From Mobula hypostoma (Eukaryota), in assembly GCF_963921235.1 (NCBI RefSeq), contig NC_086097.1, positions 95,172,001 through 95,236,000 on the forward strand: DNA of 64,000 nt, in the 5' to 3' direction. Positions 1-52,297 of this stretch are shown here, piece by piece. Numbering within the stretch: position 1 is the first letter of the stretch; every line of letters begins with the position of its first letter. Under the pieces are notes generated by a model, which did not search any database, was not told where the DNA came from, and saw nothing but the letters and a program-made list of their open reading frames with translations. The position numbers and the translations under genes are program-made.

Positions 1-262
1 TTTGGACCTCCCCATCCCCCTCTCACATCTCTTACTAACTTCTTCCTTCAGTTAGTCCTGACGAAGGGTCTCAGCCTGAAACATCGACTGTACCTCTTCC
101 TAGAGATGCTGCCTGACCTGCTGCGTTCACCAGCAACTTTGATGTGTGTGGCCTGAAACGTCGACTGTACCTCTTCCTAGAGATGCTGCCTGACCTGCTG
201 CGTTCACCAGCAACTTTGATGTGTGTTGCTTGAATTTCCAGCATCTGCAGAATTCCTGTTGT
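1..262 (+). mobile_element. Penelope-like (Neptune-type, family A) pLTR 3' end, cut by the window edge, with an internal ~77-bp direct duplication (74-149 / 151-226)
   Basis: Near-identical to the reverse complement of the terminal repeat at 16081-16260 that follows the GIY-YIG ORF. Ends in ...GCAGAATTCCTGTTGTT. Confidence 0.85.
54..89 (+). ncRNA. Minimal type I hammerhead ribozyme motif, variant stem III (GAAACATC)
   Basis: AGTC-CTGACGA-AGGGTCTCAGCCT-GAAA-CATC-GACT: stem I AGTC/GACT, both core boxes present, stem II AGG/CCT. Confidence 0.7.
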
Positions 263-670
263 TAGCACTGATAAAGAACAGGTTAAGTTCATTGGCCCTG
301 TCCACACTGCCTTCAGCTCCTCTGTTGCTAGTTTGCCGAAACCCAGTGATGGTCCTCATCCCACTCCAGACCTCTCTCATGTTGTTCTGCTGGAGTTTCC
401 ACTCAAGCTTCCTCCTGTACCTGTCTTTAGCCTCCCTGATCCTGGCTTTCAGGTCCCTCTGTATTGCCCTCAGCTCCTCCCTTTTTCCATCTCTAAACGC
501 CCACTTTTTAGCGTTCAGGATGTCCTTAATGTCCTTTGTCACCCATGGCTTGTTACCTGAATAACAAAGGACAGTTCTTGTCAGAACATTGCAGTCCACA
601 CAGAAGTTAATGTAATCAGTGATGCATTCTGTGAGCCCATCAATATCCTCTCCATGTGGCTCACAGAGGC
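263..670 (-). mobile_element. Rex1/Babar LINE internal fragment (region between endonuclease and RT)
   Basis: ORF 204-683 contains ITDYINFC..NKPWVT..KKWAFR..REAKDRYRRKLE..NNMREVWSGMRTITGF, typical of Rex1/Babar ORF2. Confidence 0.8.
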
Positions 671-1830: not shown

Positions 1831-2446
1831 CTGCCCTCACCCCTGCTTATTAGAGTACATCAAAACCCTGTCTGGTCTAGCACCTGATGCCTCTCTTTCT
1901 GCTTGTGTAGCACATAACTCCTGTCTGCTCTAGCACTGTACCAATTCCTCCTACCTGTTCTAGCACCACACAGTTCTACTGCCTGTTCTAGCAAATCCTG
2001 CCTCCACCCCCGATTATTCTAGCACAACAATCCTTTCTGCTCTAGCTCCTCACAGCCCTCCTTCTGTCCGCAATTGTATCACATACCAGTCTCCATGCGT
2101 GTACTTTTAAAAATTCATTTAGGGACGTGGGCTTCACAGGATGAACCAACATTTCATTGCCCTTGAGAAGGTGGTGCTGTGTTTCCTTCATGATTTGCTG
2201 CAGTCCTTGAGGTCTGCATATACCCACAATGTTGTTAGGGAGAGTTCCAGGATTTCGACCCAGTGAAAATTTCCAAATCAGTGATATATTTCCAAATCAA
2301 TTGTAAGTGGCTTGCGAGGGCAACTTCCAGATGGAGTTATCTCATACTTATGCTATCCTTCTCCTTCATGCTGGTAGATGTTACGTGCTTGAAATTTGTT
2401 GGTAGGTTGTTGTGATGTGTCCAAGAGATGGTGCAAATTGCTGCAT

Positions 2447-2644
2447 GCAACACACATCAAAGTTGCTGGTGAACGCAGCAGGCCAGGCAGCATCTCTAGG
2501 AAGAGGTACAGTCGACATTTCAGGCCAAGACCCTGAAACGACGTCTGTACCTCTTCCTAGAGATGCTGCCTGGCCTGCTGCGTTCACCAGCAACTTTGAT
2601 GTGTGTTGCTTGAATTTCCAGCATCTGCAGAATTCCTGTTGTTT
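2447..2644. mobile_element. ORF-less fold-back (palindromic) pLTR element, PLE family A
   Basis: Inverted arms ~2447-2511 / 2547-2610 made of pLTR sequence. Flanked by GCAAATTGCTGCAT (2433-2446) and GCAAATCGCTACAT (2645-2658). Confidence 0.85.
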
Positions 2645-2942
2645 GCAAATCGCTACATCTTTGCATTGGTGGTGGAATGGTGGAATGGGTCAATGGTTGT
2701 GAATGGGGTGCTTATTGAGCAGGCTGCTGTGACCTGCATGGTGTCAAAATTTCTGAGTGTTGTTGAAGCTGCACTCATCCAGGCAAGTGAGAATATTCCA
2801 TCACACTCCTTCCTTAAATCTTGTGGATGGTGAATGTGCTTTGGGGAGTTAGGAGGTGAGTTTCCCAGCCTCTGAACTGTTCTTTTAGCCACATTGTGTA
2901 TAAGACAACTCCAGTTCAGTTTCTGGTCAATGGTAATCCCAA

Positions 2943-8318: not shown

Positions 8319-8542
8319 AAGCAATAAACAAGATGCTGAAGGTTCTCAGTGGGTCAGGCAGCCTCTAGTAAAAGGATATGGACAGTTGACCTTTCTTGGG
8401 TCAAAATCCTTCATCAATACTGATGAAGGGTCTCAACATGAGAGACTGGTTATCCATTTTCCTTTACAGATACTGCCTGAACTGCTGAGTTCCTTCAGCA
8501 TCTTGCTTGTTGTTCCAGATTCCAGCATTCTTAATCTTGTGT
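8319..8542. mobile_element. Older degenerate fold-back pLTR element (PLE-derived)
   Basis: Arms AAGATGCTGAAGG..TCAGGCAG / CTGCCTGA..CCTTCAGCATCTT. Centre CCTTCATCA-ATAC-TGATGAAGG (8408-8429) is two opposed hammerhead cores. Confidence 0.7.
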
Positions 8543-12050: not shown

Positions 12051-12932
12051 TAGAAAAACATAGAAACATAGAAAACCTACAGCACAATACAGGCCCTTCG
12101 GCCCACAAGGTTGTGCCAAACATGTCCTTATCTTAGAATTTACTAGGCTTACCCATAGCCCTCTATTTTTCCAAGCTCCATGTACCTATCCAAAAGTCTC
12201 TTAAAAGACCCTATTGTATCCGCCTCCACCACCATCGCCAGCAGCCCATTCCACGCACTCACCACTCTCTGCGTAAAAAACTTACCCCTGACATCTCCTC
12301 TGTACCTACTTCCCAGCACCTTAAACCTGTGTCCTCTTGTGGCAACCATTTCAGCCCTGGGAAAAAGCCTCTGACTATCCACACAATCAATGCCTCTCAT
12401 CATCTTATACACCTCTATCAGGTCACTTCTCATCCTCTGTCGCTCCAAGGAGAAAAGGCCGAGTTCACTCAACCTGTTTTCATACATGCTCCCCAATCCA
12501 GGCAACACCCTTGTAAGTCTCCTCTGCACCCTTTCTGTGGTTTCCACATCCTTCCTGTAGTGAGGCGACCAGAATTGAGCACAGTACTCCAAGTGGGGTC
12601 TGACCAGGGTCCTATATAGCTGCAACATTACCTCTCGGCTCCTAAATTCAATTTCATGATTAATGAAAGCCAATACACCATATGCCTTCTTAACCACAGA
12701 GTCAACCTGCGCAGCTGCTTTGAGTGTCCTGTGGACTCAGACCCCAAGATCCCTCTGATCCTCCACATTCCAAGAGTCTTAACATTAATACTATATTCTG
12801 CCATCGTATTTGACCTACCAAAATTAACCACTTTACACTTATCTGGGTTGAACTCCATCTGCCACTTCTCAGCCCAGTTTTGCATCCTATCAATGTCCCG
12901 CTGTAACCTCTGACAGCCCTCCACACTATCCA
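12051..12932 (-). mobile_element. CR1 (HER1-like) LINE, 5'-truncated 3' end
   Basis: ORFs contain LQRDIDRMQNWAEKWQMEFNPDKCKV and LYRTLVRPHLEYCAQFWSPH..TRGH..FFTQRVVSAWN. Tail (TTTCTATG)n. Confidence 0.93.
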
Positions 12933-14800: not shown

Positions 14801-16178
14801 TTTGACTCCTGATTTTCCATTGGAGGATAAGCAATCAGTTGAACTCTTGTCATGGCCTCACAACATTCAAAGTGCTTTACAGTCAATGGAGTTTTAGAAC
14901 GAAGATCCATCCACCATGCTCTCCGGATAGCAATCCTTGTTTCAGTTATCAGGCTGCTGTCTGACTTCTCAACCAATCACCCCTTTTAGATTTGTTTCCT
15001 AGTACGGTCTCAAATTCTTACTATCACTTTAGCATTTCCTTTGCACCACCTCAGTTTGCACTACTATACTTTGCACTATTGCTATTTATGTGCTTGTCAC
15101 TGTAGTTATTGTTGTATCATTTGACCTGCTTTATGGGCAATGATGGTAACCTATGATAAGGGATGAGGCAAGAATCAATGTTAGAGGACTATGGTCCTCC
15201 ACTAGACAGAAGGCAAGGAAACAAGTCCATTGGCCCAGCAATTCCTCCTCAGGCTTGTCACGTCTGCATCACTACTTTTTGATAGGAACCTAAAGCAGAA
15301 CTTAGATGCTTATATTATGTTAATAGAGGGATAAATATTAGCCAGTATATCATGAGAAAACACTGCTTTCATCACCACAGATAAATCTCTCCAATGCCAG
15401 AGATATTGTTCATGATGTTTCTGCAGTTTCCAAATACTTTGTTATTGTACCACTACACCTTTAGTCCTGATGATATGCAACACTTTAAATGTCTGTTGTT
15501 AATGCAAGGAATTTAATGTAGGTTCTGCTTTGCAGAAAAGAAAGCTGTCCCACAAAAAAATCACAAATGAATTAATGATTTGTGTTGTTCTGTTTTCTTG
15601 GTTCTGTTTATGCAATGCCTGGCCTTGTTTTTGTTCCAACTCTACAACATGTCAAGTCTCCCTCCAGAAAGCCAGGCCTATCAGTGTGAAAGTCTAGCAA
15701 TTTCTCAACATTAAAATTCACATCTTTGTTTACAAATCCATCCATGATTTTGCCCCACCATCACTCTGTCTGTCGCTTTCATATAGGTCAGCATGACATA
15801 TCTAAATCCCTTCAGTTCTGGCCTCTTGCATATCCCCAATTTTCACTGTTCTCCCATTAGTGGCTGTATCTTCTAGTGCCTTCAGCCACTCCACCTAATT
15901 AAATATTTCTTTAAATAAGTCTTTTGCAACTCATTTGACCAAGCTTTTCTTTCCCACAAAGCATCCCCAATATCTTTTCAAGTGTTAGGTTTTGTTTCAT
16001 GGCATTCCTGTGAAACATCTCGGGTGCATGAAAGGCATTGTTGTACCCCCTCACACCTCCACTGAAATCCCTCATACTTCAAACAACAGGAATTCTGCAG
16101 ATGCTGGAAATTCAAGCAACACACATCAAAGTTGCTGGTGAACGCAGCAGGCCAGGCAGCATCTCTAGGAAGAGGTAC

Positions 16179-16214
16179 AGTCGACGTTTCAGGCCGAGAC
16201 CCTTCATCAGGACT
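16179..16214 (-). ncRNA. Minimal type I hammerhead ribozyme motif, intact consensus
   Basis: Minus strand: AGTC-CTGATGA-AGGGTCTCGGCCT-GAAAC-GTC-GACT. GUC cleavage triplet and a palindromic ACGU stem III. Confidence 0.85.
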
Positions 16215-16513
16215 AACTGAAGGAAGAGCTAGTAAAAGATTTGAAAGTGGGAGGGGGAGGGGGAGAACCAAAATGATAGGAGAAGACAGGAGGGGGAGGG
16301 AGGGAGCCAAGAGCTGGACAGGTGATTGGCAAAAGGGATATGAGAGGATCATGGGACAGGAGGCCCAGGGAGAAGGAAAAGGGGGAGGGGGGAGAAACCC
16401 AGAGGATGGGCAAGGGGTATAGTCAGAGGGACAGAGGAAGAAAAAGGAGAGTGAGAGAAAGAATGTGTGTATAAAAATAAATAACGGATGGGGTACAAGG
16501 GGGAGGTGGGGCA

Positions 16514-18654
16514 TTAGCGGAAGTTAGAGAAGTCGATGTTCATGCCATCAGGTTGGAGGCTACCCAGATGGAATATAAGGTGTTGTTCCTCCAACCTGAG
16601 TGTGGCTTCATCTTTACAGTAGAGGAGGCCGTGGATAGACATGTCAGAATGGGAATGGGATGTGTAATTAAAATGTGTGGCCACTGGGAGATCCTGCTTT
16701 CTCTGGCGGACAGAGCGTAGGTGTTCAGCAAAGCGGTCTCCCAGTCTGTGTCGGGTCTCGCCAATATATAGAAGGCCACATCGGGAGCACCGGACGCAGT
16801 ATATCACCCCACCCGACTCACAGGTGAAGTGTCGCCTCACCTGGAAGGACTGTCTGGGGCCCTGAATGGTGGTAAGGGAGGAAGTGTAAGGGCATGTGTA
16901 GTACTTGTTCCACTTACAAGGATAAGTGCCAGGAGGGAGATAAGTGCCAGGAGGGAGATCAGTGGGGAGGGATGGGGGGGACGAATGGACAAGGGAGTCG
17001 TGTAGGGAGCGATCCCTGCGGAAAGCGGGGGAGGGGGCGGAGGGAAAGGTGTGCTCAGTGATGGGATCCCGTTGAAGGTGGTGGAAGTTACGGAGAATAA
17101 TATGTTGGACCCGGAGGCTGGTGGGGTGGTAGGTGAGGACCAGGGGAACCCTATTCCTAGTGGGGTGGCGGGAGGATGGAGTGAGAGCAGATGTGTGTGA
17201 AATGGGGGAAGATGCGTTTGAGAGCAGAGTTAATAGTGGAGGAAGGGAAGCCCCTTTCTTTAAAAAAGGAGGACATCTCCCTCGTCCTAGAATGAAAAAC
17301 CTCATCCTGAGAGCAGATGCGGCAGAGACGGAGGAATTGCAAGAAGAGGATGGCATTTTTGCAAGAGACAGGGTGAGAAGAGGAATAGTTCAGATAGCTG
17401 TGAGAGTCAGTAGGCTTATAGTAGACATCAGTGGATAAGCTGTCTCCAGAGACAGAGACAGAAAGATCTAGAAAGGGGAGGGAGGTGTCAGAAATGGACC
17501 ACGTAAACTTGAGGCAGGGTGAAAGTTGGAGGCAAAGTTAATAAAGTCAACGAGTTCTGCATGCGTGCAGAAAGCAGCAGCAATGCAGTCGTCGATGTAG
17601 CGAAGGAAAAGTGGGGTACAGATACCAGAATAGGCACGGAACATAGATTGTTCCACAAAGCCAACAAAAAGGCAGGCATAGCTAGGACCCATACGGGTGC
17701 CCATAGCTACACCTTTAGTTTGGAGGAAGTGGGAGGAGCCAAAGGAGAAATTATTAAGAGTAAGGACTAATTCTGCTAGACGGAGCAGAGTGGTGGTAGA
17801 GGGGAACTGATTAGGTCTGGAATCCAAAAAGAAGCGGAGAGCTTTGAGACCTTCCTGATGGGGGATGGAAGTATATAGGGACTGGACATCCATGGTGAAA
17901 ATAAAGTGGTGGGGGCCAGGGAACTTAAAATCATCGAAAAGTTTAAGAGCGTGAGAAGTGTCACGAACATAGGTAGGAAGGGATTGAACAAGGGGGGATA
18001 AAACCGTGTCGAGGTATGCAGAAACGAGTTCCGTGGGGCAGGAGCAAGCTGAGACAATAGGTCTGCCAGGACAGGCAGATTTGTGGATCTTGGGTAGGAG
18101 GTAGAAACGGGAAGTGCGAGGTGTAGGAACTATAAGGTTGGTAGCAGTGGATGGGAGATCCCCTGAGCAGATAAAGTCGGTGATGGTGTGGGAGACAATG
18201 GCCTGGTGCTCCTTAGTGGGGTCACGATTGAGGGGTAAATAAGAGGAGGTATCCGCGATTTGTCGCTGTGCCTCGGCAAGGTAGAGGTCAGTACGCCAGA
18301 CTACAACAGCAGCCCCCTTATCGGCGGGTTTAATAATAAGGTTAGGATTAGTGCGGAGGGAGTGCAGAGCAGAGCGTTCCGAAGGAGTGAGGTTGGAATG
18401 GGAACAAGGTGTGAAGTCGAGACGGTTGATGTCCCGTCGGCAGTTAGCGATAAAGAGATCCAGAGCAGGCAGAAGACCAGAGCGGGTGTCCATGAAGAAG
18501 AGAAGGGTTGAAGACGCGAGAAGGGGTCATCGGTGGGGGTGGAAGAGTCCTTGCCGAAGAAGTAGGCTCGGAGATGGAGACGGCGGAAGAAGAGTTCCGC
18601 ATCATGGTGAACACGGAACTTGCTGAGGGGTGGGCGAAGGGGGACAAAGGACAA
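16514..18654 (-). pseudogene. PLE reverse transcriptase-GIY-YIG endonuclease ORF, split by frameshifts
   Basis: ORF pieces 18301-18654, 17468-18493 (RT) and 16514-17356 (GIY-YIG), ending GMNIDFSNFR*. An 18-bp in-frame duplication gives PPGTYLPPGTYP. Confidence 0.9.
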
Positions 18655-19590
18655 AGCTTATCCCTTACTGAGGACAGAGCGCTCTGCCTCAGACAGTTGA
18701 AGGTCGGAGGGGATGGTAACGACCCGGCACGGATGAGAGCTGGGATCCGAGGGGGGGCAGGCAGGCTGGGGCTGTCAATGGAGAGTGGAGGGTTGGGGTG
18801 AGAGGAAGATGGAGCCTCTGAGGACCGAGGAGCTGATGATGGGATCTGAAGGAGATGGGATTGCAGAGTATTGGTGGGGGAAGGGGAGACGGGAGTCACA
18901 ATAGCAGCACATAAAGACCCGGCCTGGAGTACAAGGCTGGAGTCGCAGTTGGTGGTTGCGCAATCGCTTTGAAGGTGTCCATGGTCGTTGCTGGAGTCCA
19001 GGTTTTGAATATGCCCTGAGGCGTTGGAGCCGGCGAGATCAATGGCAAGGGCCGCAATCTGAAGCCCTCATACTTCCTCCTGTTTGTACTCCTCTATTGT
19101 CTCATTTGAAGCATTGACCATGGTTAGCTTCAGGCATCAGGACCCAAAAATACGTCTCACTAATCTAGATTCTTCTGCAGAAATAGGTGTGATGGCATGA
19201 TGCTAATTCATTATGAAAATTTTTATAAGATTTCATATTCTATCTTATTTATAGGGCCCATTTCTAGTCCAAGGGTAAATTGGTGACTGCAATAAATAGA
19301 TCTGAAGTTAACAAAAATCAAATAAACAAGTATGCTTATAAATGCATATATACTGATATGCACAAGGCAAAGATTAGCATGTATAAAGAGCACAGGCATG
19401 CATGAATGCTTTGTCAGGGCCTAATATAGTCGGGCCCACAAGTGTTACTACAGACAGGCAAATAAGATCAAAAACAACACACACAAAATGTTGGAGGAAT
19501 TTAGCAGGTCAGGCAGCATCTATGGAAATTAAGTGCGCGCGCACACACACACACACACACACTCGCATATGACGCCATATGGCTCCTATA

Positions 19591-20085
19591 CAGTAGTGTG
19601 CAAAAATCTTAGGCACTTAAAATGTAGTTAGTGTGCCTAAGAATTTTGCACAGTACTATAGTAATTTTATGTAATGCACTGTATTGCTGCCACAAAAAAA
19701 AGACAAATTTCATGACACATGTTAGTGATGATAAACTTGATTTTGATATGGGTCTGTCGTGTGGACTGAGAGTGGGGAGGGGGCAGGGAGAGGGGAATCA
19801 TGGTTGGGAAAAGGGGAGGGAGTGGGAAGCACCAGACAGACAGTCTGTAATGATCAATAAACCAATTGTTTGGAAACAAATGACCTTGTCTGATGTCTCA
19901 GAGCTGGGCGTGTCTGCACCCATGCCATGCCCGCCCCTCCTCCCCACAACCTTCACTGCCAGCTGTCCCACACCTCTCCCGCAGCGCTCCACCCTCGCCA
20001 TTCCCAAAATGCTTTGCCCTCACCAGCTTTGCAAGCTCGCTCTCCACCCAACTTTGACAAATATAGTTACTGTACTAAAGTCTTA
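19591..20085. mobile_element. Composite Tc1/mariner-like MITE, copy 1 (right end degenerate)
   Basis: TA + CAGTAGTGTGCAAAAATCTTAGGCAC..GTGCCTAAGAATTTTGCACAGTACTA hairpin (19591-19658). Internal ~400 bp is homologous to the reverse complement of 51832-52228. Confidence 0.75.
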
Positions 20086-24131: not shown

Positions 24132-25142
24132 AGTCTTTCCTTTCGCCCTTCCTGTAGGTACACTGATCGGCTGGACTCTGGACAGATGTGCTGAATGGTG
24201 AAAAAAACCATGAGGATTTACCAGTCCCTCCTTTCATTAGCTGATTTTAACAATTTTGCATATACATACTGTACAGAGAACAGGTTGAGCCCAACGGCAA
24301 GCTGACTAGCTACTAGGTTCCAAATGCAAAGAGGACAGTATCCATCAAGGAGAAGCCCTGTAATAACCTCAGTACACACATGCATCATTTATTGGGTAAA
24401 AGCTGCAAAACCACAAACTGGCAATTTCCCATTCACATATCATCAGGTGTTCATTGACCAATTTTGATTCACAATTATGCAATTGCAAAATACACTCTTC
24501 TCGTCCTTGTTTGCAGATTCCCCCAAAGCAACAATTCATCTCTACATCAGTAATCTCCTCCAAGGTATCTTCTCTTCTTCAGAACTGGCCTCTTGAATAT
24601 CCCCTGTTCTGCCTACCAGCCATTGCTGACCATTTAGTGGTCTTGGCCCTAAGCTCTGTAATTCTCTCCCTAAACCTCTACACATTTTTTACCTCATCCT
24701 CAGGGTTTTTCAAAACTAACCTCTTTGCCCAGTCTTTTTTTTTTCCTAAACACAAAATACTCTGCAGATGCTGGGGTCAAAGCAATATTCACAACACGCT
24801 GGAGGAACTCAGCAGGTCGGGCAGCATCCGTGGAAACGATGAGTCAATGTTTTGGGCCAGAACCCTTCGCCAGGACTGAAGAGGGAAGGGGCAGAGGCCC
24901 TATAAAGAAGGTGGGGGGAGAGTGGGAAGGAGAAGGCTGGTAGGTTCCAGGCGAAAAACCAGTAAGGGGAAAGATAAAGGGGTGACGGAGGGGAAGTAGG
25001 GAGGTGATAGGCGGGAAAGGTAAAGAAGGAATAGGGGAAAACACAATGGGTAGTAGAAGGAGGCAGAACCATGAGGGAGGTAACAGGCAGCTGGAGGAGG
25101 AGGCAAAGTGAAACTGGGATACGGGAAGGGAGGGGAACAGAA

Positions 25143-28100
25143 TTACCGGAAGTTGGAGAATTCTATGTTCATACCAAGGGGCTGGAGACTACCTAGACGG
25201 TATATGAGGTGTTGCTCCTCCAACCTGAGTTTAGCCTCATCATGGCAGTAAAGGAGGCCATGTATGGACATATCTGAATGGGAGTGGGAAGCAGAGTTGA
25301 AGCGGGTGGCTACTGGGAGATCCTGTCTGCTGTGGCGGACGGAGCGGAGGTGCTCAACGAAGCGGTCCCCCATTCTGCGTCGGGTTTCACCGATGTAGAG
25401 GACGCCGCACCGGATGCAATGGATGACCCCAACAGACTCACAAGTGAAGTGTTGCCTCACCTGGAAGGACTGTTTGGGGCCCTGAATGGCGGCAAGAGAG
25501 GAGGTGTAGGGACAGGTGTAGCACTTACGCTTACAGGGATAAGTGAGATCCATGGGGAGGGACGTGTGGATCAGGGAGTCACGGAGGGACCGATCCCTGC
25601 GGAAAGCGGAGAGAGGCGGAAAAGGAAAGATGTGCTTAGTGGTGGGGTCCTGTTGAAGGTGGCGGAAGTTGCGGAGGATAATGTGCTGGATCTGGAGGCT
25701 GGTGGGGTGGTAGGTGAGGACAAGGGGAACTCTGTCCCTGTTGTGGTGGCGGGAGGATGGGGTGAGGACCGAAGTGCGGGAAATGGAGGAGATGCGGGTG
25801 AGGACATCATTGATGACGGGCAGAAGGAAAACCACGAACCTTAAAGAAAGAGGACATTTGAGATGTCCTGGAACGGAAAACTCTCATCCTGGGAGCAGAT
25901 GCGGCAGAGACGGAGGAACTGGGAATAGGGAATGGCATTTTTGCATGTGGCGGGGTGGGAAGAGGTATAGTCGAGGTAGTTATGAGAGTCAGTGGGCTTA
26001 TAGAAGATGTCAGTGGACAGTCTGTCTCCAGAGATGGAGACCGAAAGATCGAGAAAGGGGAGAGAAGTGTCCAAGATGGACCAAGTGAATTTGAGGGCTG
26101 GGTGGAAGTTTGAAGTAAAGTCGATGAAATTGACGAGCTCAGCATGGGTGCAGGAAGCAGCACCAATGTAGTCGTCAATGTACCAAGGGAAAAGTTGGGG
26201 AGTAGTACCAGAATAGGTTTGGAGCACAGACTGTTCCAAATAACCAACAAAGAGGCAGGCATTGCTGGGGCCCATGTGAGTGCCCATAGCTACACCTTTG
26301 GTCTGAAGAAAGTGGGAACAGCCAAAACAGAAGTTATTAAGTGTGAGTATCAGTTCTTCCAACCGGAGGAGGGTAGTGGTGGTGGGAAACTGGTGAGGTC
26401 TATTATCCAGAAAGTAGTGGAGGGCCTTGAGGCCTTCTTGATGGGGAATGGAGGTGTATAGGGATTGGACATCCATAGTGAAAATGAAGCACTCGGGACC
26501 AGGGAACTGGAAGTTATTGAAGAGGTGGAGGGCATGGATGTATCCCGGATATGGGTGGGGAGGGACTGAACTATGGGTGACAAAATGGAGTCCAGGTAGG
26601 CAGATAGAAGTTCGGTTGGACAGGAGCAGGCGGAAACTATGGGTCTACTGGGACAGTCAGGCTTGTGAATCTTGGGGAGGAGGTAAAACCAAGCGGTACG
26701 GGGTGTGGGAATTATGAGTTTAGCGGCTGAGGATGGAATGTCCCCGGAGTTGATAAGGGTGGTGATGGTATGGGAGGGAATGGTTTGAATTTTTTTGGTG
26801 GGGTCCTGTTCCAGGGGTAAGTAAGAGGAGGTATCAGAGAGCTGCCGTTTGGCCTCAGTGAGGTAGAGGTCCGTCCACCAGACTACTACGGCACCACCTT
26901 TGTCTGAGGGTTTGATGGTGAGGTTGGGATTAATGCAGAGAGAGTGGAGGGCAGTGCGTTCAGAGGGAGTGAGGTTGGAACAGGAGAGAGGAGTGCTGAA
27001 GTTGAGACAGTTGATGTCTCGGCAACAGTTGGAGATAAAAAGATCGAGTGCAGGTAGAAGGCCTGGGCGGGGTGTCCAGGAGGAAGAGGAGGGTTGAAGA
27101 CAGGAGAAGGGGTCATCAGTAGGGGGAGGGGAATCTTTGCCAAAAAAGTAGGCTCAGAGACATAGGCGACGGAAGAAGAGTTCAGCGTCATGGCGGGCAC
27201 AGAACTCACTGAGGTGTGGACGGAGGGGGACAAAAGTGAGGCCCTTGCTAAGGATAGAACATTCTGCTTCAGAGAGGGGAAGGTCAGATGGGATGGTGAA
27301 GACATGGCAAGGGTTGGGGCTGGGGTCTGGGGTCAGAGGAAGGTGAAGAGTGGGAGGTCTCAGGAGGGAGAGGGGGGTTGGGATATTCAGGGAGAGTGGG
27401 GTTAGGGGAGGATGAGGGATCAGAGGAATGGAGGGACGATGAGGAGTAGAAGGAAGGTTGGGAGTCGCGGGGAGGAGAAGAGGGTAGTGGGGGAATAAGC
27501 AGCAGTAAGAGCGGTCCTGGTCTGGTGAGGGTCGGGACCTCAGTCCGAGCTGGATCTGGAGCTGAGGGTGGCGAAGCTTGTAACCTGCAGGACCCCAGAA
27601 CTGAGGTCGGAGTCGAAGGTGAGTGAGTCCATGGCCCGCTGGCGGCTGGTGCCCATGTCTGGGAGGCCGTGGTACCAATCGGGGTCAGAATATGAGGCGG
27701 ATGGGTCTTCGGCCTGCTGAAGGCCTGAGAAGTCGAGGTCCGAGGGGTCGGGGTCCGGGCCTGGAGCCGGTCGTTGTCATGGGCTTGTGGTCCTTCTTGG
27801 ATGCAAGGAAGGAGAAGAAATGGCGGTTGGAGGCGTGAGTCCGGCGGAGAATGAAGTGTAGGAGAGGTCCATGGCAGACGGTGGAGAGTGAGGCCCGGAG
27901 TGGTGGTAGAGAGAGGAACAGGGCCCGTAGGTATCTCCGCATGGCAGTGAGCGTGGCACGGAGAATCCGGCGGGAGCAGCGGTCAATGAAACGGAGGTAT
28001 CTGGGATCCACGTCGGGCCCGAACTGGGAGACCTGGAACCAGAGCTGGAATCCCTGCGGTAACAGATGGTGGTGGAGACACGTTCCCAGGAAGGAGACGT

Positions 28101-28272
28101 GGCTGTGGGAGCGGGTCTGGGTCAGGATCTGGTTGAAGAGTCGGAGAGAGGCGGAGATCACAGAGGGGGAGCAGTGAGAGAGGGTCTCACTGAATTCCCG
28201 TTGAAGGGAAGATTTAAACTTCTTCAGGGTAGGCATACCTCGAAGAAACTTCGCAGCGGAGTAGCGAATCAA
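25143..28272 (-). pseudogene. Full-length but multiply frameshifted PLE ORF (N-terminal domain, Pro-rich linker, RT, GIY-YIG)
   Basis: ORF fragments 27685-28272, 27154-27678, 25841-26476 (MDVQSLYTSIP..YIDD) and 25143-25835 (LYIGETRR..RFVEH..GMNIEFSNFR*). Confidence 0.9.
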
Positions 28273-28364
28273 AACATAAAATACTCTGCAGATGCTGGGG
28301 TCAAAGCAACACGCACAACACGCTGCAGGAACTCAGCAGGTCGGGCAGCATCTGTGGAAAAGAT

Positions 28365-28402
28365 CAGTCAACGTTTCAGGCCGGAACCCTTCGTCAGGAC
28401 TG
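28365..28402 (-). ncRNA. Minimal type I hammerhead ribozyme motif (GUU triplet)
   Basis: Minus strand: CAGTC-CTGACGA-AGGGTTCCGGCCT-GAAAC-GTT-GACTG. 5-bp stem I and an AACGUU palindrome. Confidence 0.8.
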
Positions 28403-30069
28403 AAGAGGGAAGGGGCAGAGGCCCTATAAAGAAGGTGGGGGGAGGGTGGGAAGGAGAAGGCTGGTAGGTTCCAGGTGAAAAACCAGTAAGGGGAAAGATA
28501 AAGGGGTGTGGGAGGGGAAGCAGGGTGGTGATAGGCAGGAAAGGTGAAGAAGGAATAGGGGAAAACACAATGGGTAGTAGAAGGAGGCAGAACCATGAGG
28601 GAGATGACAGGCAGCTGGGGGAGGGGGGCAGAGTGAAATAGGGATAGGGGAAGGGAGGGGGAGGGAATTACCGGAAGTTGGAGAATTCTATGTTCATACC
28701 AAGGGGCTGGAGACTACCTAGACAGTATATGAGGTGTTGCTCCTCCAACTTGAGTTTAACCTCATCATGGCAGTAGAGGAGGCCATATATGGATATATCC
28801 GAATGGGAATGGGAAGCAGAGTTGAAGTGGGTGGCTACCGGGAGATCCTGTCTGTTGTGGCGGACGGAGTGGAGGTGCTCGACGAAGTGGTCCCCCAATC
28901 TGCGTCGGGTTTCACCGATGTAGAGGAGGCCACACCAGGAGCACCGGATGCAATAGATGACCCCAACAGACTCACAATTGAAGTGTTGCTTCATCTGGAA
29001 GGACTGTTTGGGGCCCTGAATGGTAGTCACTCTGCCCCCTCCCCTAGCTGCCTATCACCCCCCTCATGGTTCCACCTCCTTCTACTACCCATTGTGTTTT
29101 CCCCTATTCCTTCTACACCTTTCCTGCCTATCACCTCCCTGCTTCCCCTCCCCCACCCCTTTATCTTTCCCCTTACTGGTTTTTCACCTGGAACCTACCA
29201 GCCTTCTCCTTCCCACCCTCTCCCCACCTTCTTCATAGGGCCTCTGCCCCTTCCCCCTACAGTCCTGATAAAGGGTTCCGGCCCAAAAAGTCGACCGATC
29301 TTTTCCACGGATGCTGCTCGACCTGCTGAGTTCCTCCAGTGTGTTGTGAGTGTTGCTTTTTTTCCCCTGTTGTCTTCATGTCTTCTCCTAAGGTCCCAAG
29401 TCATAAAGATAGGCCCTTTGATCTCCCATGAGGACAATCAAACTCTCATTTACAATTATCCAATCTTCCTCTCATCAATGGTCTCCAGATCCTCCCACCT
29501 CTATTTCACTTTACAGTAGCAAATTACCTATCAAACCGCTTGCTTTTGGGGTAACAGAACACCAAGGGGAGTCCTATACAGGCACAGAGAGAAATGTAGC
29601 TGACTGGATAAAGCACCATTGTGCCAATGACGGGACAACATCGATAAGCCTGCAATGGCTTTCTCTTTGGTTCTTGCTACAGCCTTTGGAACAAATCAGT
29701 CAGTGAACTGTGACCTACATTAAACTCCCCTAATTATTGAGAAGTTGAAATATTGTCCAGGAGTGATTCTTCTCCCACAGGGGCAGGGGTTCGAAACAAA
29801 GGTAGCCACAATTACTAAGGAACCTGTTGCAATCAACTTATCCCTTCTGTTAAATCAACAGACCCTAAACAGGACTCATGACTACAGGAGAACAGCCAGT
29901 ACATATTGTTAAGCTACTGATGCAAAGAAACCATCACAACAATAATCATTTGCAGAAAACTTCATCTTCAGTCCTTCTGGTGTCTTGCATTTTGTCCACC
30001 TTTAAATGTAGCAAAACATCTTAAAATATATTGTAAGAGCATTATCAAACAAAATATGACACGAGGCAA

Positions 30070-30512: not shown

Positions 30513-32160
30513 AGAATCAGAATCAGGTTTATTATCACCGGTATGTGTCGTGAAATTTGTTAACTTAGCAGCAGCAGTTCAATACAACACATAATATAGA
30601 AGAGAAAAAAAACAAAATAAAATAATAATAATAATTAAATCAATTACAGTATATGTATATCGAATAGATTAAGACTTGTGTAAAAACAGAAATAATATAT
30701 ATTTTTAAAAAATGAGGTAGCATCCAAGGATTCAATGTCCATTTAGGAATCAGATGGCAGAGGGGAAGAAGCTGTTCCTGAATCACTGAGTGTGTGCCTT
30801 CAGGCCTCTGTACCTCCTACCTGATGGTAACAGTGAGAAAAGAACATGCCCTGGGTGCTGGAGGTCCTTAATAATAGAAGCTGGCTTTCTGAGACACCAC
30901 TCCTTGAAGGTGTCCTGGGTACTTTGTAGGCTAGTGCCCAAGATGGAGCTGACTAAATTCACAATCCTCTGCAGCGTCTTTCGGTCCTGTGCAGTAGCAC
31001 CACCCGCCCCCCCCACATACCGGACAGTGCTGCAGACTGTCAGAATGCTCTCCATGGTACATCTATAGAAGTTTTTGAGTGTATTTGTTGACATACCAAA
31101 TCTCTTCAAACTCCTAATGAAGTATAGCCGCTGTCTTGCCTTCTTTATAACTGCATCGATATGTTGGGACCAGGTTAGATCCTCAGAGATCTTGACACCC
31201 AGGAACTTGAAACTGCTCACTCTCTCCACTTCTGATCCCTCTATGAGGATTGGTATGTGTTCCTTCGTCTTAACCTTTCAGAAGTCCACAATCAGCTGTT
31301 CCGTATTACTGACGTTGAGTGCCAGGTTGTTGCTGCGGCACCACTCCACTAGTTGGCATATCTCACTCCTGTACATCCTCTCGTCATCATCTGAGATTCT
31401 ACCAACAATGGTTGCATCATCAGCAAATTTATAGATGGCATTTGAGCTAAACCTAGCCACACAGTCGTGGGTACAGAGGAGAGTAGGGCAGAGGGCTAAG
31501 CACACACGCCTGCAGTGCACCAGTGTTGATCATCAGTGAGGAGGAGATGTTATCACCAATCCGCACAGATTGTGGTCTTCCAGTTAGGAAATCAAGGATC
31601 CAATTGCAGGAGGTACAGAGGCCCAAGTTCTGCAACTTCTCAATCAGGATTGTGAGAATGATGGTGTTAAATGCTGAGCTGTAGTTGATGAACAGCATCC
31701 TGACACAGGTGTTTGAGTTGTCCAGGTGGTCTAAAGCCGTGTGAAGAGCCACTGAGATTGCATCTGCCATTGACCTATTATAGCAAAAGGCAAATTACAA
31801 TGGGTCCAGGTCCCTGCTGAGGCAGGAGTTCAGTCTAGTTATGATCAACCTCTCAAAGCATTTCATCCCTGTAGACATGAGTGCTACCGGGTGATAATTA
31901 GTCATTAAGGCAGCTCACATTATTCTTCTTAGGCACTGATATAATTGTTGCCTTTTTGATGCAAGTGGGAACTTCCGCCCATAGCAGTGAGAAGTTGAAA
32001 ACGTCCTTGAATATTCCCACCAGTCGGTTGCCACAAGTTTTCGGAACTTTACCAGGTACTCCATTGGGACACTCAGCCTTGCGAGGGTTCACTCTCCTTA
32101 AAGACAGTCTAACACCGGCCTCTGAGACAGAGCTCACAGTGTCACCAGGTGCAGCAGGGG
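30513..32160 (-). mobile_element. Rex1/Babar LINE, 5'-truncated (RT to 3' UTR)
   Basis: VNPRKA..P(N)GVPG, VPTC.KKATII.VPKK, IYKFADDATIVGRI, FKFLGV..KKARQRLYF..LLPSGRRYR. Tail (TTCTGA)n. Confidence 0.92.
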
Positions 32161-35040: not shown

Positions 35041-35509
35041 CCCCAAGTTACTCTGAATGGGATTTCTCCTGTCAGATCCTCAGTTGCTCTGTACCCCACT
35101 GGGAAGGTGGGTGTACTGCAAAGTGAACCCAGAATCACTCCATACCTTTGTTGGATGAATGAAGATCAGCAGGAGGTGTGGTTACTTGCCTGATATTCGA
35201 TTTATGACAAAGACTGCTGGAGGAAGTGCTTCTAAACCACTGTTAAATGTAGCAATGAGTGTTTGGGTTAGCAACATAAACATGTTTGATGTAAAACTTG
35301 TAATGGAACAAAGAACAACTGAATCTGTTGATAGCAATAGGTCTGAGCCAGGATCTAAAAGAAGAGTCTGCAAATAGCAGAAGCCACTTTGATCAGCAGA
35401 CACAAGAGGCCATCCTGTGGCTATGATACTGTCACCACAACTTTATTGATTGGGCTTGGATAATCTTCTGACAAGACATCTTTTGAGGAAGGACGTGAAT
35501 TTCTATCAT

Positions 35510-35757
35510 TATTTCCCAGCTCTTTACTTCATCCCTCCCCCTTCATGTTTCACCTATCACTTTGTGTTTCTCTCTTCCCTCCCCCCATCTTTTAAATCTA
35601 CTCCTCAGTTTTTCTTCTCCAGTCCTGCTGAAGGGTCTCAGCCCGAAATGTCGACTGTAATCCTTTCCATGGACACTACCTGGCCTGCTGAGTTCCTGCA
35701 GCATTTTGTGTGTATTGCTTGGATTTCCAGCATTGCAGATTTTCTCTTGTTTGTGAT
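35510..35757 (+). mobile_element. Solo PLE pLTR fragment (third subfamily) with a mutated hammerhead at 35621-35657
   Basis: AGTCCTGCTGAAGGGTCTCAGCCCGAAATGTCGACT. Perfect 14-bp direct repeat TGAATTTCTATCAT at 35496-35509 and 35758-35771. Confidence 0.8.
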
Positions 35758-35785
35758 TGAATTTCTATCATGCCTTTCACAGTGA

Positions 35786-36190: not shown

Positions 36191-36484
36191 TAAACAATCT
36201 GATGCAGGAACTCAGTAGGTCGAGCAGTATCTGTGTGAGGGAAGGAATTTTCAACGTTTCTGGACATTCCTACCATCTTTGACTCAGAGACAATGGTTCA
36301 GCCTTTGAAACAAAGATGAAAAGGTATCAGGAATTCATTTAGGTGATTGTCACAACTAGAATAAAGCTATATTAGATACCAGAGTCTAAACCTCATCTGT
36401 ACTGAGTTAGCTGATCTCAACTAATGGGAAAGGTAGAACTGCATTATTGCCAGAAGTGAGGTAGTAGAAGTGGAATAAGCTGAT

Positions 36485-37410: not shown

Positions 37411-37570
37411 AATACAACTGTTGGGGGAACTCAAAGGGCTAGCAGTGGCTGTGGAGGAAAAGGGATAGGAAATATTTGGGGTTAAGACCAAGTATCAGGA
37501 CTGATGCAAGACCTCGGCCCAGAAAGTCAACAATTCCTGTTCCCTCACCTGCTGATCCCAGCATTGTGTC
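37411..37570. mobile_element. Very degenerate fold-back pLTR element
   Basis: Centre GTATCAG-GA-CTGATGC, followed by AAGACCTCGGCCCAGAAAGTCAAC (decayed hammerhead). Arms are pLTR-like. Confidence 0.45.
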
Positions 37571-37731: not shown

Positions 37732-38544
37732 CTCGGACTTCCAGCCAGGTACAAGTATCAATTGTAATTGATATTTCAATGACAATCTCTGCCATCTTCA
37801 TCAGGGATGATACCTGGGCATGTCTCATCCAGTGGTACTTATACCCCTGTCATCCATCCCTCCTGATTGATTAGTCCTCATCCAATCAGGTTTCCACTGT
37901 CCCATCTTGCTTACAATCAAATTACAGTCTTACCTAGAGGAAGACCTTAGTCTTTGTTAAAATTCTTTTTCTCTAGTTTTATTTCTATGGCTTCCTTCAA
38001 CAGGCGGTCCCAAAAGCCATTGGTGTGGCACAGTAGTTACGTGTCGTCGAAGTCAATCGCACGGTGGAAACTCACATCAAGGAGCATAGGAGGTGTATTC
38101 GTTTGGGTTACCTGAAGAAATCAGCAGTAGCAGAACGTTGTATTTGCAATAGCCATAGGATTAACTTCGACGGCACAAAACTACAGTGCCGCGCCAATGG
38201 CTTTTGGGACCGCCTGGTGAAGGAAGCCGTAAAAATAAAACTAGGGAAAAAGCATTTTAACAAAGATTAAAGTCTTGCTCTGAGAAAGAACTGGAATTTG
38301 ATTGTAAACAAAGTGGGACAGCAGAAACCTGATTGGATAAGGACTAACCAATCAGGAGGGACAGGTGATGGGGGTATAAATACTACCAGACTGGACATGT
38401 CCAGGTATCATCCCTGATGAAGATAGCAGAGCTTGTCATTGAAATGTCATTGAAATGTCAGTTAAAATCGATACCTGTACCCGACTGGAAGCACAAGAAG
38501 AGTTTACTTGTCATATGAGCTGGGAAAGCACTAGACCCTTTTTC
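37732..38544 (+). mobile_element. Poseidon/Penelope-type PLE 3' end with a long inverted duplication
   Basis: ORF 38064-38270 contains IKEHRRCIRLG..KSAVAE..HRINFD..RLVKEAVKI (GIY-YIG C-terminal part). 37732-38058 is an inverted copy of ~38158-38500. Flanks ATAGAGGGATATC (37719-37731) and ATAGAGAAATATC (38545-38557). Confidence 0.85.
38329..38382 (+). promoter_or_regulatory. Putative pLTR Pol II promoter: two opposed CCAAT boxes plus a TATA box
   Basis: CCTGATTGG (ATTGG 38332-38336), CCAATCAGG (38348-), GGGGTATAAATA (TATAAA 38375-38380). Confidence 0.5.
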
Positions 38545-46745: not shown

Positions 46746-47631
46746 ATTTATATTCCCTCTACACTATTTGGTCAGGGTAGATACAACCACTCAATATGAA
46801 ATAGAGAATCTGTATATTCTGTCATCGGTTCCTCAATCATTAAAAGTTAGAAAAACAAAGCTAAACGGTTGTTCCATTTCTCCCATGAGCACCCCAGGGT
46901 CCTTGATTAAAATATCAAACTTAGACAATTTCACCCTTGTAGATCTCCAGTCATCAGGAACCAATCTGAGAATATCCAATTTTATTTTGTACCAATTTGT
47001 GGTACACCAACAACTTGCATTTATATGGCATCTTTAATGTAATAGGATAGCTCAGGCACTCTACAAGATTATTCATAAAAAATGAGAAGACATTAGAAAG
47101 TGGAAGCACCTTGCTCGGAGGTTTTATCACACATTACAGAACTTCTACTAAGTGCTAATTACAGGGAATTAAGAGAAATGAAAATTCTCTTTGCATGCAA
47201 TCAAACAAATATGTTAGGCACAGACTCACTGGAACCACATTGCGCAGCTGAATAGTGATCACTCAAAGCCTGAAATTATCAGCGTCAAAACAAGAGGAAG
47301 GGTGGAAGCAGTGTGGGTTTAAAAATGGGGCGCATATGTGACCACAACACATGCAGCCAACAGCAAGAAATCCAGCCAGTGTGCTCAGCTGTTTCCACAT
47401 CACGGCTCAATGTGCTTCTCAAAATATAGCAAACAAGATGTCTTTGCCCAGGGTTTGCTTTCTGGTGAGGGGTTTACTCCTAATCTTTAAACATTATATA
47501 CTCCATACAGCAATAACAAAAAGTATTTAACATCATTAACATAGCAAGGTACCCCCAGCACTGAACAGGAAAGTTACCAAAAAAACTTGATGCCACAGCA
47601 CAGGAAATGAAATGACAGATGAGCTTTATAC

Positions 47632-48357
47632 CTCCTCTCTCACCACTATTCAGGGCCCCAAACAGTCCTTCCAGGTGAGGCAACACTTCACTTGTGAGTC
47701 TGTTGGGGTCATCTATTGCATCCGGTGCTCCCAGTGCAGCCTCCTCTACATCGGTGAAACCTGACGCAGATTGGGGGACCACTTCGTCGAGCACCTCCAC
47801 TCCGTCCGCCACAACAGACAGGATCTCCCGGTTCCCACCCACTGCAACTCTGCTTCACATTCCCATTTGGATATGTCCATACACGGCCTCCTCTACTGCC
47901 ACGATGAGGCCAAACTCAGGTTGGAAGAGCAACATCTCATATACCGTCTGGGTAGTCTCCAGCCCCTGGGCATGAACATTGAATTCTCCAACTTCCAGTA
48001 ATTCCCTCCCCCTCCCTTCCCCCATCCCAGTTTCACTCTGCCCCCTCCCCCAGCTGCCTATCACCTCCCTCATGGTTCCACCTCCTTCTACTACTCATTG
48101 TGTTTTCCCCACTCCTTCTTCATCTTTCCTGCCTATCACCTCCCTGCTTCCCCTCCCCCACCCCTTTATCTTTCCCCTTACTGGTTTTTCACCTGGAACC
48201 TACCAGCCTTCTCCTTCCCACCCTCCCCCCACCTTCTTTATAGGGCCCCTGTCCCCTCCCTCTTCAGTCCTGACGAAGGGTTCTGGCCCGAAACATTGAC
48301 TGATCGTTTCCGCAGATGCTGCCCGACCTGCTGAGTTCCTCCAGCGTGTTGTGAGTG
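47632..48357 (+). mobile_element. PLE family B 3' fragment (GIY-YIG end plus pLTR)
   Basis: Near-identical to the reverse complement of 28310-29025. Perfect 11-bp TSD GAGCTTTATAC at 47621-47631 and 48358-48368. Confidence 0.92.
48265..48302 (+). ncRNA. Minimal type I hammerhead ribozyme motif, variant GAAACATT
   Basis: CAGTC-CTGACGA-AGGGTTCTGGCCC-GAAA-CATT-GACTG. Confidence 0.65.
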
Positions 48358-49879
48358 GAGCTTTATACAAAGAAGGTTTTAAGGATCATCTTAAAAGGAA
48401 GAGAAATATAAAGAGCAGACATTGAGAAAGAAGGTGGTCTGCAAATGTAATCAAGGAACACCAAGTGGCCAGAACTAGATAGACAGCAGAATCTCAGAGG
48501 ATCGCAGGGCAGTGGAGATTACAAAGTGGGAGGGATAAAGTGAGTAGGATCTGAAAATTAGGATCAAGGTTTTGAATCTGAAGCATTGCTTAACCTTAAC
48601 TCAAACTAGGTCAGCCAAGGGTGTATAAAACTGGCTCAAATTAGATATGGATAGCAGAATTTTCAAAAGCACTGCTATTTGTCCTCTGTTTAATGCAAAC
48701 TCAGCAAAGTCCATACTGAATCTCTCTGCCACTGTGCATCATCAAGGACAAAGATGTACAGGTGGGGTTGGGGGTGACGGGAAAGAGAAACAGGCTGAGG
48801 TGGAAGTGAAAAAGGCTGGGAAAGTGGGACAGAGAGACAGGAGGGGTCAGAAAGAGAAGACAACAGTTGGTGGAAGAGATGCAGGCAGGTAGGGGTGGTG
48901 AGGGATGAATGGGAGCAGACAGACATGGGAGGGGAAGGCAGGTAGGGCTGGTGGGGAAAGGCAGAAAAGTGAAGGGGGAGTTGATGGGGGAAAACAGGGA
49001 GTGAGGAAGTCCAGTAAAAGGATTTAGTAGATGGATCCACCGTGTAACGGGAGCTGGAGCTAGGTTTAGAGTTGCAGCTTCCATTGCCTGGGTTTATTGG
49101 AAGCTGCTCCAGCCACCACACAGCTTGAGGCCTTGTCTGCTGAAGGCATAGCCTAACTTTGCACAAAAACCTCCGCCACACTTTAGATTATTTGCCTACA
49201 AGTAGCACATTGGGTGTAAAATGTTTTTCATATCCCACTGTCACAAAAGCTGCGATTAAAATGCCAGTTCCTTTTTTCTTTATTTTTAATCAAAAGACAC
49301 AAACAACTTGTGAGGGTTTGGGGAGTCTGTGTCTATTTTTGCTGGTGCGTATGACTTTAAAAAGCTGATGAATTATCTGACAAAGCTTGTTTGGAAATGT
49401 ATGTGAGTAACTGCAGGCTTTGGTCTGGTTACATCAGATAAGGTGGGTTTCAGACACTGCTTGTTTCCATTTATTTAATCCACTGTCAGAAAGAGATTTA
49501 CTGGTGTTCAACCCCACATGGTTACAGGGCAAGAGCTCTGCTGGGCCACCTGCTTGCTCCGTTCACTTCAGAAATGACACATTTCAGCTTCTTCCTGTCT
49601 GGTGCTGTTGACCTGTTCATGCCTCTACGCTATCTCTGCTGCATCTACAGTCAACACTGAGTAAGAACAGACCATTTACAGTACTCCTATCAGATACACT
49701 ACAGTTCACGTGTATGCCTCATTGCCAGCCACTCAGTCTCCATAGTACACAAGGAGTATAAAAGGAACAATTTTGTCCTGTATCAGCCACATGTAACTTA
49801 GAGTAGCATCTGCATACCTACAGAACACAGAATAAAATACAGTACAGCCTTTCCTGTCTGATGCTGTACAGGTCATATA

Positions 49880-50672: not shown

Positions 50673-51749
50673 CAGTGGATTCCAGTTAACTGGGACACAT
50701 CGGGACCAGTATATGTTGGCCTAATTAAGCAGCTGTCCCAATTAGCCATAGTTTCATGGAAATATTTAGAAAGATATAAAAGGAGTCAGCAAACAACAGG
50801 AATTCTGCAGATGCTGGAAATTCAAGCAACACACATCAAAGTTCCTGGTGAACGCAGCAGGCCAGGCAGCATCTCTAGGAAGAGGTACAGTCGATGTTCC
50901 AGGCTGAGACCCTTCGTGACGAAGATCCTGACGAAGGGTCTCGGCCTGAAACGTCGACTATACCTCTCCCTAGAGATGCTGCCTGGCCTGCTGCGTTCAC
51001 CAGCAACTTTGATGTGTGTTGCTTAAAAGGAGACAGACTCAGTAATAAATTATGTATTTAAATGAATACAGAACAAACTAGAATACTACAACTAGTACTA
51101 CAGTACTATAAAATTGTCTATTAGTCCCTAATAGTTATTGATGGAGGAATTCATCCAGTATGCGCTGACGTGTTCTTTAGATTGACTGTAAATGAACAAA
51201 ATCAGTGCAGACACCTAGTGTAGATAATGGACTGCCTTCGTACAATACTTTCGGCGATTGCATCCTCCAAATCTTCATTTTCATTGTAACATTCATGATG
51301 ATTGTCGATATCTTCAAATTCTTCACAGTTTCTAACTTATTGAAGTAGTGAAATCGTTTCATTTCCTCTCCCGGCTGTTTCTGGCATTTCCAAGCCTGAA
51401 TGCTTGAAACCGCAGTGAGCAAAATGGTTCTGAGTAGCCTTACTACTTATTTCTCCTCAACGATCAGTATCAAAAATCACCACATTTCAATACAAACACA
51501 TGCAACTGATGTTATTTACAAACAGTTTGCTCTAAGTGTGGGGTAGTGCCTAACAGCCACACAAGTGTACGTGACTGACACTAGTTAGAAACTGATAGGC
51601 TACAATCTCCTGCCACAATTAAGTGACATAGTGCCCCAAATAAATGAAGAGAATTCCAGCAATTTCTCAATTAGTTTATGCTTTTTAAGTGTTGTCCCAA
51701 ATAGGTGGTTGCTCTGATTAACCAAGGCCCAATTAACAGGAATCCACTG
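50673..51749 (-). mobile_element. Tigger/pogo-like non-autonomous DNA transposon
   Basis: TA-CAGTGGATTCCAGTTAACTGGG ... CCCAATTAACAGGAATCCACTG-TA. Minus-strand remnants QNHFAHCGFKH and acidic EDIDNHHECYNENEDLEDAI resemble a Tigger transposase C-terminus. Confidence 0.85.
50791..51023. mobile_element. ORF-less fold-back pLTR element (PLE family A) inserted in the Tigger-like element
   Basis: Arms ~50824-50917 / 50931-51023. Hammerhead core CTGACGAAGGGTCTCGGCCTGAAACGTCGACT at ~50928-50959. Flanks TAAAAGGAGTCAG (50777-) and TAAAAGGAGACAG (51024-). Confidence 0.88.
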
Positions 51750-51765
51750 TACATAAGAGAACTTA

Positions 51766-52295: not shown

Positions 52296-52297
52296 TA

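Follow-up and report, generated by a model that had tools for sequence, protein, structure and literature searches.

Minimal hammerhead motifs in Penelope-like terminal repeats of Mobula hypostoma and the state of the RNA behind new copies

Short motifs resembling minimal hammerhead ribozymes recur along a 64,000-nucleotide stretch of the Mobula hypostoma genome (positions 95172001-95236000 of contig NC_086097.1 in a 3.48 Gb assembly; the whole stretch is referred to below as the window). The locus raises the questions of which elements carry these motifs, whether the motifs cut RNA, and whether cutting is a step in making new copies. The role of hammerheads in Penelope-like elements (PLEs) is described as unclear (PMC8557442). 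The CpG observed/expected ratio in the window is 0.28, a vertebrate-like depletion.

The motif was searched for with a strict descriptor (core, stem II of at least 3 bp, an ACGT-type palindrome and stem I of at least 4 bp), which produced two matches in the window and none in 100 dinucleotide shuffles. Applied to a 1.09 Mb genome sample, made up of 109 stretches of 10 kb on three contigs (four of the stretches are neighbours of the window), the same descriptor matched 27 times, and in three shuffles not at all; the frequency of the motif is well beyond chance. Genome-wide, the core pattern has 66,334 exact matches, and 51,731 exact intact matches are found if palindrome, cut site and GAC are included; the reversed control was 0 for both. 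A profile search picked up 19 repeat pieces in the window; the 1.09 Mb sample gave 238. Together with two copies of family D, the window contains 21 repeat copies of four subfamilies; the motif is spanned completely in 15 of them and is intact in two. Clustering of 272 near-full copies gave groups of 135 (A), 27 and 18 (both C) and 10 (B), plus small old groups. An Rfam scan of the window returned no hammerhead family at E up to 10, as would be expected for a motif without helix III.

A first-pass annotation of the window had counted about a dozen copies and placed a ribozyme in nearly every terminal repeat. All the copies that it named were found, including the eight described as decayed (near 8420, 24842, 29261, 35621, 37501, 38414, 54656 and 58945); it had overlooked truncated arms at 149-219(+), 2457-2535(-), 2532-2599(+), 50836-50919(-) and 36194-36265(-), and its list also lacked the other arm of the pair near 8420, at 8328-8423(-), and a motif at 37804(-) that partners 38414. 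"Nearly every" is correct for remnants of the motif but not for intact ribozymes (2/21). Two of the five copies singled out as best, 16179-16214(-) and 28365-28402(-), are intact; 54-89(+) and 48265-48302(+) carry ACAT, which breaks the palindrome, and thus do not belong among the best copies, and the copy at 50928(+) has its core and palindrome but a 5' end within stem I, which leaves 2 bp. The copies and their parts are listed below.

16178-16215 (-): intact minimal hammerhead of subfamily A, GUC site, strict descriptor match
16215-16211 with 16182-16178 (-): stem I of this hammerhead
16210-16204 (-): its core CUGAUGA, followed by an unpaired A at 16203
16202-16199 with 16194-16191 (-): its stem II, 4 bp with a closing G-U and a tetraloop
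16190-16187 (-): its GAAA, with the ACGU palindrome at 16187-16184
Between 16183 and 16182 (-): its predicted cut
16080-16513 (-): 3' terminal repeat in a subfamily A element that is truncated on its 5' side; the 3' end, 16080, is tailed and lies at +102 relative to the cut site
About 16124-16108 (-): short-end zone in that terminal repeat
16514-17389 (-): broken GIY-YIG endonuclease frame of the same element, E 3e-4, just below the Pfam cut-off
17468-18526 (-): its broken reverse transcriptase (RT) frame, RVT_1 E 3e-6, just below the Pfam cut-off
24748-29359 (-): subfamily B insertion with inverted terminal repeat (pLTR), partial tandem, broken ORF and 3' pLTR ending at 24748
29027-29359 (+): inverted pLTR of this insertion, decayed motif at 29261
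29023-28272 (-): its partial tandem
28365-28402 (-): intact minimal hammerhead of subfamily B, GUU site, predicted cut between 28370 and 28369, in the upstream pLTR of the partial tandem
24842-24877 (-): decayed motif in the 3' pLTR of this insertion
7-263 (+): subfamily A copy with a tandem partial copy; motif 54-89 (ACAT), second unit 150-263 beginning in stem II
2426-2645 (both strands): head-to-head mini insertion of a short and a tailed arm, each with its truncation within the motif; target duplication of about 14 bp
50790-51027 (both strands): head-to-head mini insertion, + arm from 50926 in stem I and - arm from inside the core; target duplication of about 12 bp
47627-48364 (+): 5'-truncated subfamily B copy; motif 48265-48302 with intact core and broken palindrome (ACAT)
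35503-35765 (+): older subfamily C copy, decayed motif at 35621
58104-59093 (+): older subfamily C copy with an endonuclease remnant; motif near 58945, core damaged
8322-8512 (both strands): old head-to-head pair, motifs decayed
37416-37552 (both strands): very decayed head-to-head pair; 37504-37416(-) at E 1e-5, the + partner only at E of about 1
54594-54704 (-): old decayed copy, motif near 54656
37738-38491 (both strands): inverted pair of the unrelated family D around a GIY-YIG remnant; motifs 38414(+) and 37804(-)

The subfamily A hammerhead lies about 300 nt behind the GIY-YIG frame, itself after the RT frame on the same strand, and the annotated location of the motifs in pLTRs, behind such frames, is borne out. 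The region 24748-29359 is a textbook PLE insertion, in which same-strand motifs 3,525 nt apart sit in both direct pLTRs around one ORF; its downstream motif is dead, which leaves the window without an intact same-strand pair. In this insertion, a CX3CxxC linker precedes the endonuclease (frame 25143-25883). An RT with a C-terminal GIY-YIG domain, tandem and inverted pLTRs, a one-sided tail and target duplications are all found, as in endonuclease-bearing PLEs. An 8 nt direct repeat is present on both sides of the subfamily A ribozyme, at 16228-16221(-) and 16174-16167(-). A short upstream frame (12-16 codons, ATG CTG start) begins about 18-20 nt past the cut site in A and B, before the main ORF (16164-16110(-) and 28351-28313(-)). 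The window also contains a MITE-like repeat of about 500 bp with inverted ends (19586-20085 and 51764-52300, 81% identical) and remnants of other LINE-type retroelements with RT-like frames (204-728, 12149-12736, 30783-31277 and 52677-53168).

The window motifs are very probably minimal type I hammerheads of PLE terminal repeats, as first annotated; the core boxes, the palindrome and the RT and GIY-YIG context agree on this. The kind of motif has been published (Cervera and de la Peña 2014), and all that the ribozyme itself contributes is a new, very copy-rich host. All four hallmarks given in PMC4209133 are present (core boxes, an extra base between 9 and 10.1, G10.1-C11.1, and palindromic 15.2-16.2). 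An unpaired A follows A9 and is followed by G in all families, and 11.1 is C in B and D. In subfamily A arms, 11.1 is T in 108/150 and C in 40/150, such that G10.1 pairs as G-U in most. At the CpG spanning 11.1/12, C has changed to T in 108/150 A arms, while catalytic G12 has changed to A in 8/150; we infer that only the side that keeps the G-U pair was fixed in a source element. Stem III is palindromic and loopless as described, with ACGU in A, B, C and D, and the proposed presence of at least three PLE subfamilies is upheld, A-C being related to each other and D unrelated.

Among subfamilies A-C, no compensatory pair changes were found in the stems, which share identical letters; support for the structure therefore comes from family D and from the literature. 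In family D, core, extra A, G-C pair and palindrome are all retained, but the stems around them are wholly different and still pair: stem II has 6-7 bp, and stem I has 2 bp and is extendable past an internal loop. A 22-letter pattern of this family has 1,021 exact matches genome-wide. Subfamilies A and B are identical at 33/38 positions of the motif versus 47/67, 8/12 and 32/44 in the flanks (67-73%), while A and a decayed C copy show no clear island (31/38 versus 10/12 and 34/41). In four organisms there are contigs that agree with 16177-16214 and part from it to the left and right of the motif (213 and 170 contigs in X1, for example). Judged from sequence comparison, selection probably maintained the motif in active source elements. 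The genomic copies are dead and decay neutrally.

This decay bears on the suggestion in the first-pass annotation that methylation-driven changes at the CpG of the palindrome would directly disable dimerisation. Changes to ACAT or ATGT are real and common in the window, and they break the predicted intermolecular stem (-2.8 kcal/mol for the active dimer of the copy at 54, compared with -11.9 kcal/mol for that of the intact copy at 16214). However, they are no commoner than changes at other CpGs. CpG transitions among copies were counted at the palindrome (27/302), core N7/G8 (23/254), loop II (26/291), the cut site (16/308) and outside the ribozyme (36/335), with a chi-square p of 0.15 across the five sites and a Fisher p of 0.82 for the palindrome against the other four; non-CpG changes affected 13/1213 core letters and 43/3498 flank letters. 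Since CpG decay is equal inside and outside the ribozyme, loss of the palindrome is the ordinary decay of dead copies. The copies are, moreover, non-coding relics. Methylation aimed at the palindrome as a switch for dimerisation is thus refuted by the uniformity of the decay, and we regard it as highly improbable.

Whether the motif cuts was approached by secondary-structure prediction, which ignores tertiary contacts and Mg2+. In a transcript that extends from a pLTR into the following one, two motifs would be present, able to pair through ACGU and to exchange stem I with each other. For the 16214 copy, the active double hammerhead is predicted at -11.9 kcal/mol, compared with -18.8 kcal/mol for two monomers, and the best predicted dimer (-27.1 kcal/mol) is inactive. 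In the predicted monomer, core GAUG pairs with CGUC, and a lone motif would hide its palindrome in an inactive hairpin. This preference for inactive forms fits the low activity reported in PMC4209133, where dimers and trimers cleaved at a low level and mostly at non-physiological Mg2+, and the protein dependence reported in PMC11167929, where the anole ribozyme cuts only with the protein of its element. Cleavage as dimers, which the first-pass annotation had cited as established, is indeed published, but these reports show that it was overstated. Weak, assisted dimer cleavage of the window motif appears reasonably probable to us. The alternative is that the motif does not cut and is retained as a protein-binding, promoter or RNA-pairing signal. 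The low in vitro activity is compatible with this, as are the absence of cleavage in 8/9 Xenopus dimers (bioRxiv 10.64898/2026.07.22.740005) and the success of Naiad PLEs, which thrive without the motif (PMC8557442). It is nevertheless improbable, as the catalytic letters are conserved across families with different stems, and in the anole element core mutants abolish cleavage and a double mutant rescues it (PMC11167929).

More than 100,000 young copies are present in this genome, and their junctions record the state of the RT template. Positions were numbered from the first base past the predicted cut (position 0, window 16182). The 171 family A arms analysed, from the youngest subfamily, are at least 86% identical to the 16214 copy, reach +30 and start at or before +40, with duplicates removed; they were taken from the window, the 109 stretches and 70 further stretches picked by a downstream anchor (+7..+26). 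The cut site is read through in 154/171 arms. A total of 166 5' ends was scored: the interval -36..-19 holds 40 of them (2.2 per nt), -200..-71 holds 15 (0.12 per nt) and -1..+1 holds two. The read-through and the 5' ends upstream of the cut indicate that the template RNA was mostly uncut or religated, and cutting is therefore probably not a step in making most new copies. What is novel here is that new copies are made mostly from RNA uncut, or rejoined, at the ribozyme site.

The 3' ends of family A arms form two groups, at about +58..+74 and +94..+102, which corresponds to the known tail. In every head-to-head pair (41/41), a tailed arm is joined to a short one, a pattern suggesting that the two target strands prime at separate internal sites within a single RNA; the start of reverse transcription would lie about 65-73 nt, or else about 101 nt, downstream of the cut, on uncut or religated RNA. 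The subfamily letter at +17 is common to both arms in 47/51 pairs (43% expected at random), so both arms come from one source. Given this concordance, an origin of the two arms from mixed RNA dimers is rejected; such dimers are not the rule, which also counts against a non-cutting motif retained for RNA pairing.

According to the proposal made in PMC4209133, both motifs of a tandem are cut and the unit RNA is ligated into a circle that restores the motif and serves as the RT template. At the DNA level, a site that was religated looks the same as one never cut, the read-through of 154/171 arms fits a circle as well, and partial tandems such as 24748-29023 fit copying of more than one unit. A circle, however, has no end 19-36 nt upstream of the cut, where 40/166 of the 5' ends lie, and ribozyme mutants of the anole element insert normally in vitro (PMC11167929). 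We consider this route unlikely.

A trace of cut templates may be visible as an excess of junctions at position 0, which holds about 1% of arms, more than adjacent positions. Genome-wide two-letter counts at -4, -1, 0, +1 and +3 were 419, 73, 471, 102 and 236 (820, 213, 1,297, 451 and 426 when corrected for letter frequency), set against 115,628 anchor matches. Fold-back junctions of the main classes at -1 and +1 escape these filters, however, and the comparison with position 0 is biased accordingly. Of 20 position-0 junctions that were read, 17 are head-to-head joins, two are internal changes and one is a plain flank; at least 12 of the joins pass through 2-4 nt of homology at GAC(T). For these reasons, the spike was not accepted as proof of cleavage, and cut templates have an upper bound of 1-2%. 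A recurrent one-base junction (three of the 20 read) was dropped as a candidate, with seven matches genome-wide and its three A-type cases within 2.3 Mb of one contig. These share an identical unusual junction on the same strand of the window's contig (27999909, 28958670 and 30295897), possibly by local duplication.

The 5'-end peak has a binomial p of 5e-25, which is naive because paired arms share an event. The simplest account would be that transcripts begin immediately before stem I and are copied to their end (run-off), producing the pile-up 19-36 nt upstream of the cut; we give it about an even chance. Subfamily C has 8/44 5' ends at -36..-19, a count confounded by subfamilies with other upstream sequence, and subfamily B has 0/9, too few copies to weigh. 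Alternatively, the peak may reflect fold-back at short inverted repeats, in which the motif is rich and which would join the two cDNA ends, or stalling of the RT at proteins bound to the pyrimidine tract and the splice-acceptor-like CAG just before stem I. Among the 40 peak ends, 25 abut an inverted partner and 15 are solo; many junctions rely on short homologies (2-4 nt) that come from stem I, stem II or GACG/CGTC, and A (16245-16211(-)), B (28430-28398(-)) and C (35590-35625(+)) each have a pyrimidine tract with a CAG whose end falls in stem I, resembling the D. virilis intron that ends at helix I (PMC4209133). The tract could equally be an initiator, and some A copies have a TACTAAC-like box. 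Eight of the 15 solo peak arms, on the other hand, show a target duplication of at least 9 nt at the junction (read by eye), none of the 15 shares an upstream exon, and the CCAAT boxes and canonical TATA box of family D, 39 nt upstream of its core (38280-38460(+)), would place a start at its stem I. In A and B, an AT-rich box lies 28-29 nt before TCAGT and the TATA-like boxes are weak. A shoulder of 13 ends (-52..-37) adjoins the peak on its upstream side, and this edge is less sharp than a single start would give. The weak boxes of A and B, the tract resembling a splice acceptor and this shoulder keep fold-back or stalling a live rival, to which we assign somewhat less than an even chance.

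Splicing of a first exon onto the CAG that precedes stem I was rejected, as 0/15 solo copies starting at -36..-19 share upstream sequence; an intron is still compatible with the data, since PLEs retain introns.

Run-off as the preferred account of the peak leads to the prediction that the transcript starts about 36 nt upstream of the cut site. A broader proposal, which we put forward tentatively and hold to be doubtful, is that PLE transcripts begin at the 5' edge of the hammerhead, that a quarter of new insertions are run-off products of the capped, uncut 5' end, that the ribozyme is a 5'-terminal, cap-removing switch that shuts off the RNA rather than a processing step in transposition, and that the position-0 spike stems from the small share of templates, about 1%, that had been cut. 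Overall, we think it probable that the motif is a PLE pLTR hammerhead, likely a weak, protein-assisted dimer cutter, whose genomic copies are dead and neutral and whose template RNA is mostly uncut or religated.

The motif resembles the minimal hammerheads defined in PMC4209133, which were found in metazoan PLE pLTRs including Xena, Poseidon and Neptune of fish: it is type I, without a helix III loop, with a palindromic 15.2-16.2, an extra base after A9 and G10.1-C11.1. Shared features are also a helix I of 4-5 bp, location on the sense strand of the pLTR, and mostly single truncated copies with opposite-strand pairs 100-700 bp apart. Stem II has 4 bp in A-C, compared with 7-8 bp in Schistosoma; copy number is higher, at 51,731 exact intact matches, where Xenopus tropicalis has about 9,000 and coelacanth 4,000; and the copies of the present genome are uniform, unlike that set. 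The text and one supplementary file of PMC4209133, as far as searched, name no cartilaginous fish, and figures or supplements of published work may contain a shark or ray example. Retrozymes are present in one chondrichthyan genome sampled in bioRxiv 10.64898/2026.07.22.740005. These non-LTR retrozymes are likewise pLTR-derived, non-coding and equipped with a type I hammerhead; they form head-to-tail arrays, in contrast to the dispersed 5'-truncated or inverted insertions described here. They are recognized by at least two consecutive tandem units with complete hammerheads, whereas the sole short tandem of the window (7-263) has a second unit without a core.

Poseidon PAc of the anole (Frangieh et al. 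2024, PMC11167929) has two 3' ends about 30-35 nt apart, as seen here, and its two internal RT starts yield the tail. Its ribozyme is protein-assisted and its main insertion substrate is unprocessed RNA, which fits our readings; the junction data agree with this in vitro finding of an uncut template. In PAc, the ORF begins within stem II, but about 130 nt past the cut site in subfamily B (likely start codon). The CX3CxxC linker of A-C lies between RT and endonuclease in accordance with the CX2-5CxxC description of the Neptune clade in PMC8557442, unlike PAc. A 5'-end pile-up is not described in the available part of PMC11167929, and the portions searched of the PLE literature (including PMC2377424, PMC6155905 and PMC6765202; few subscription papers were covered) do not mention a concentration of 5' ends where the ribozyme begins. 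The insertions resemble those described in PMC3846280 and PMC8557442 in their head-to-head inverted arm, one-end tail, target duplications of 9-14 bp, and TATA and Inr-like motifs in the pLTR. Beyond those descriptions, the pairing of tailed with short arms is quantified here, and the junctions cluster in the ribozyme.
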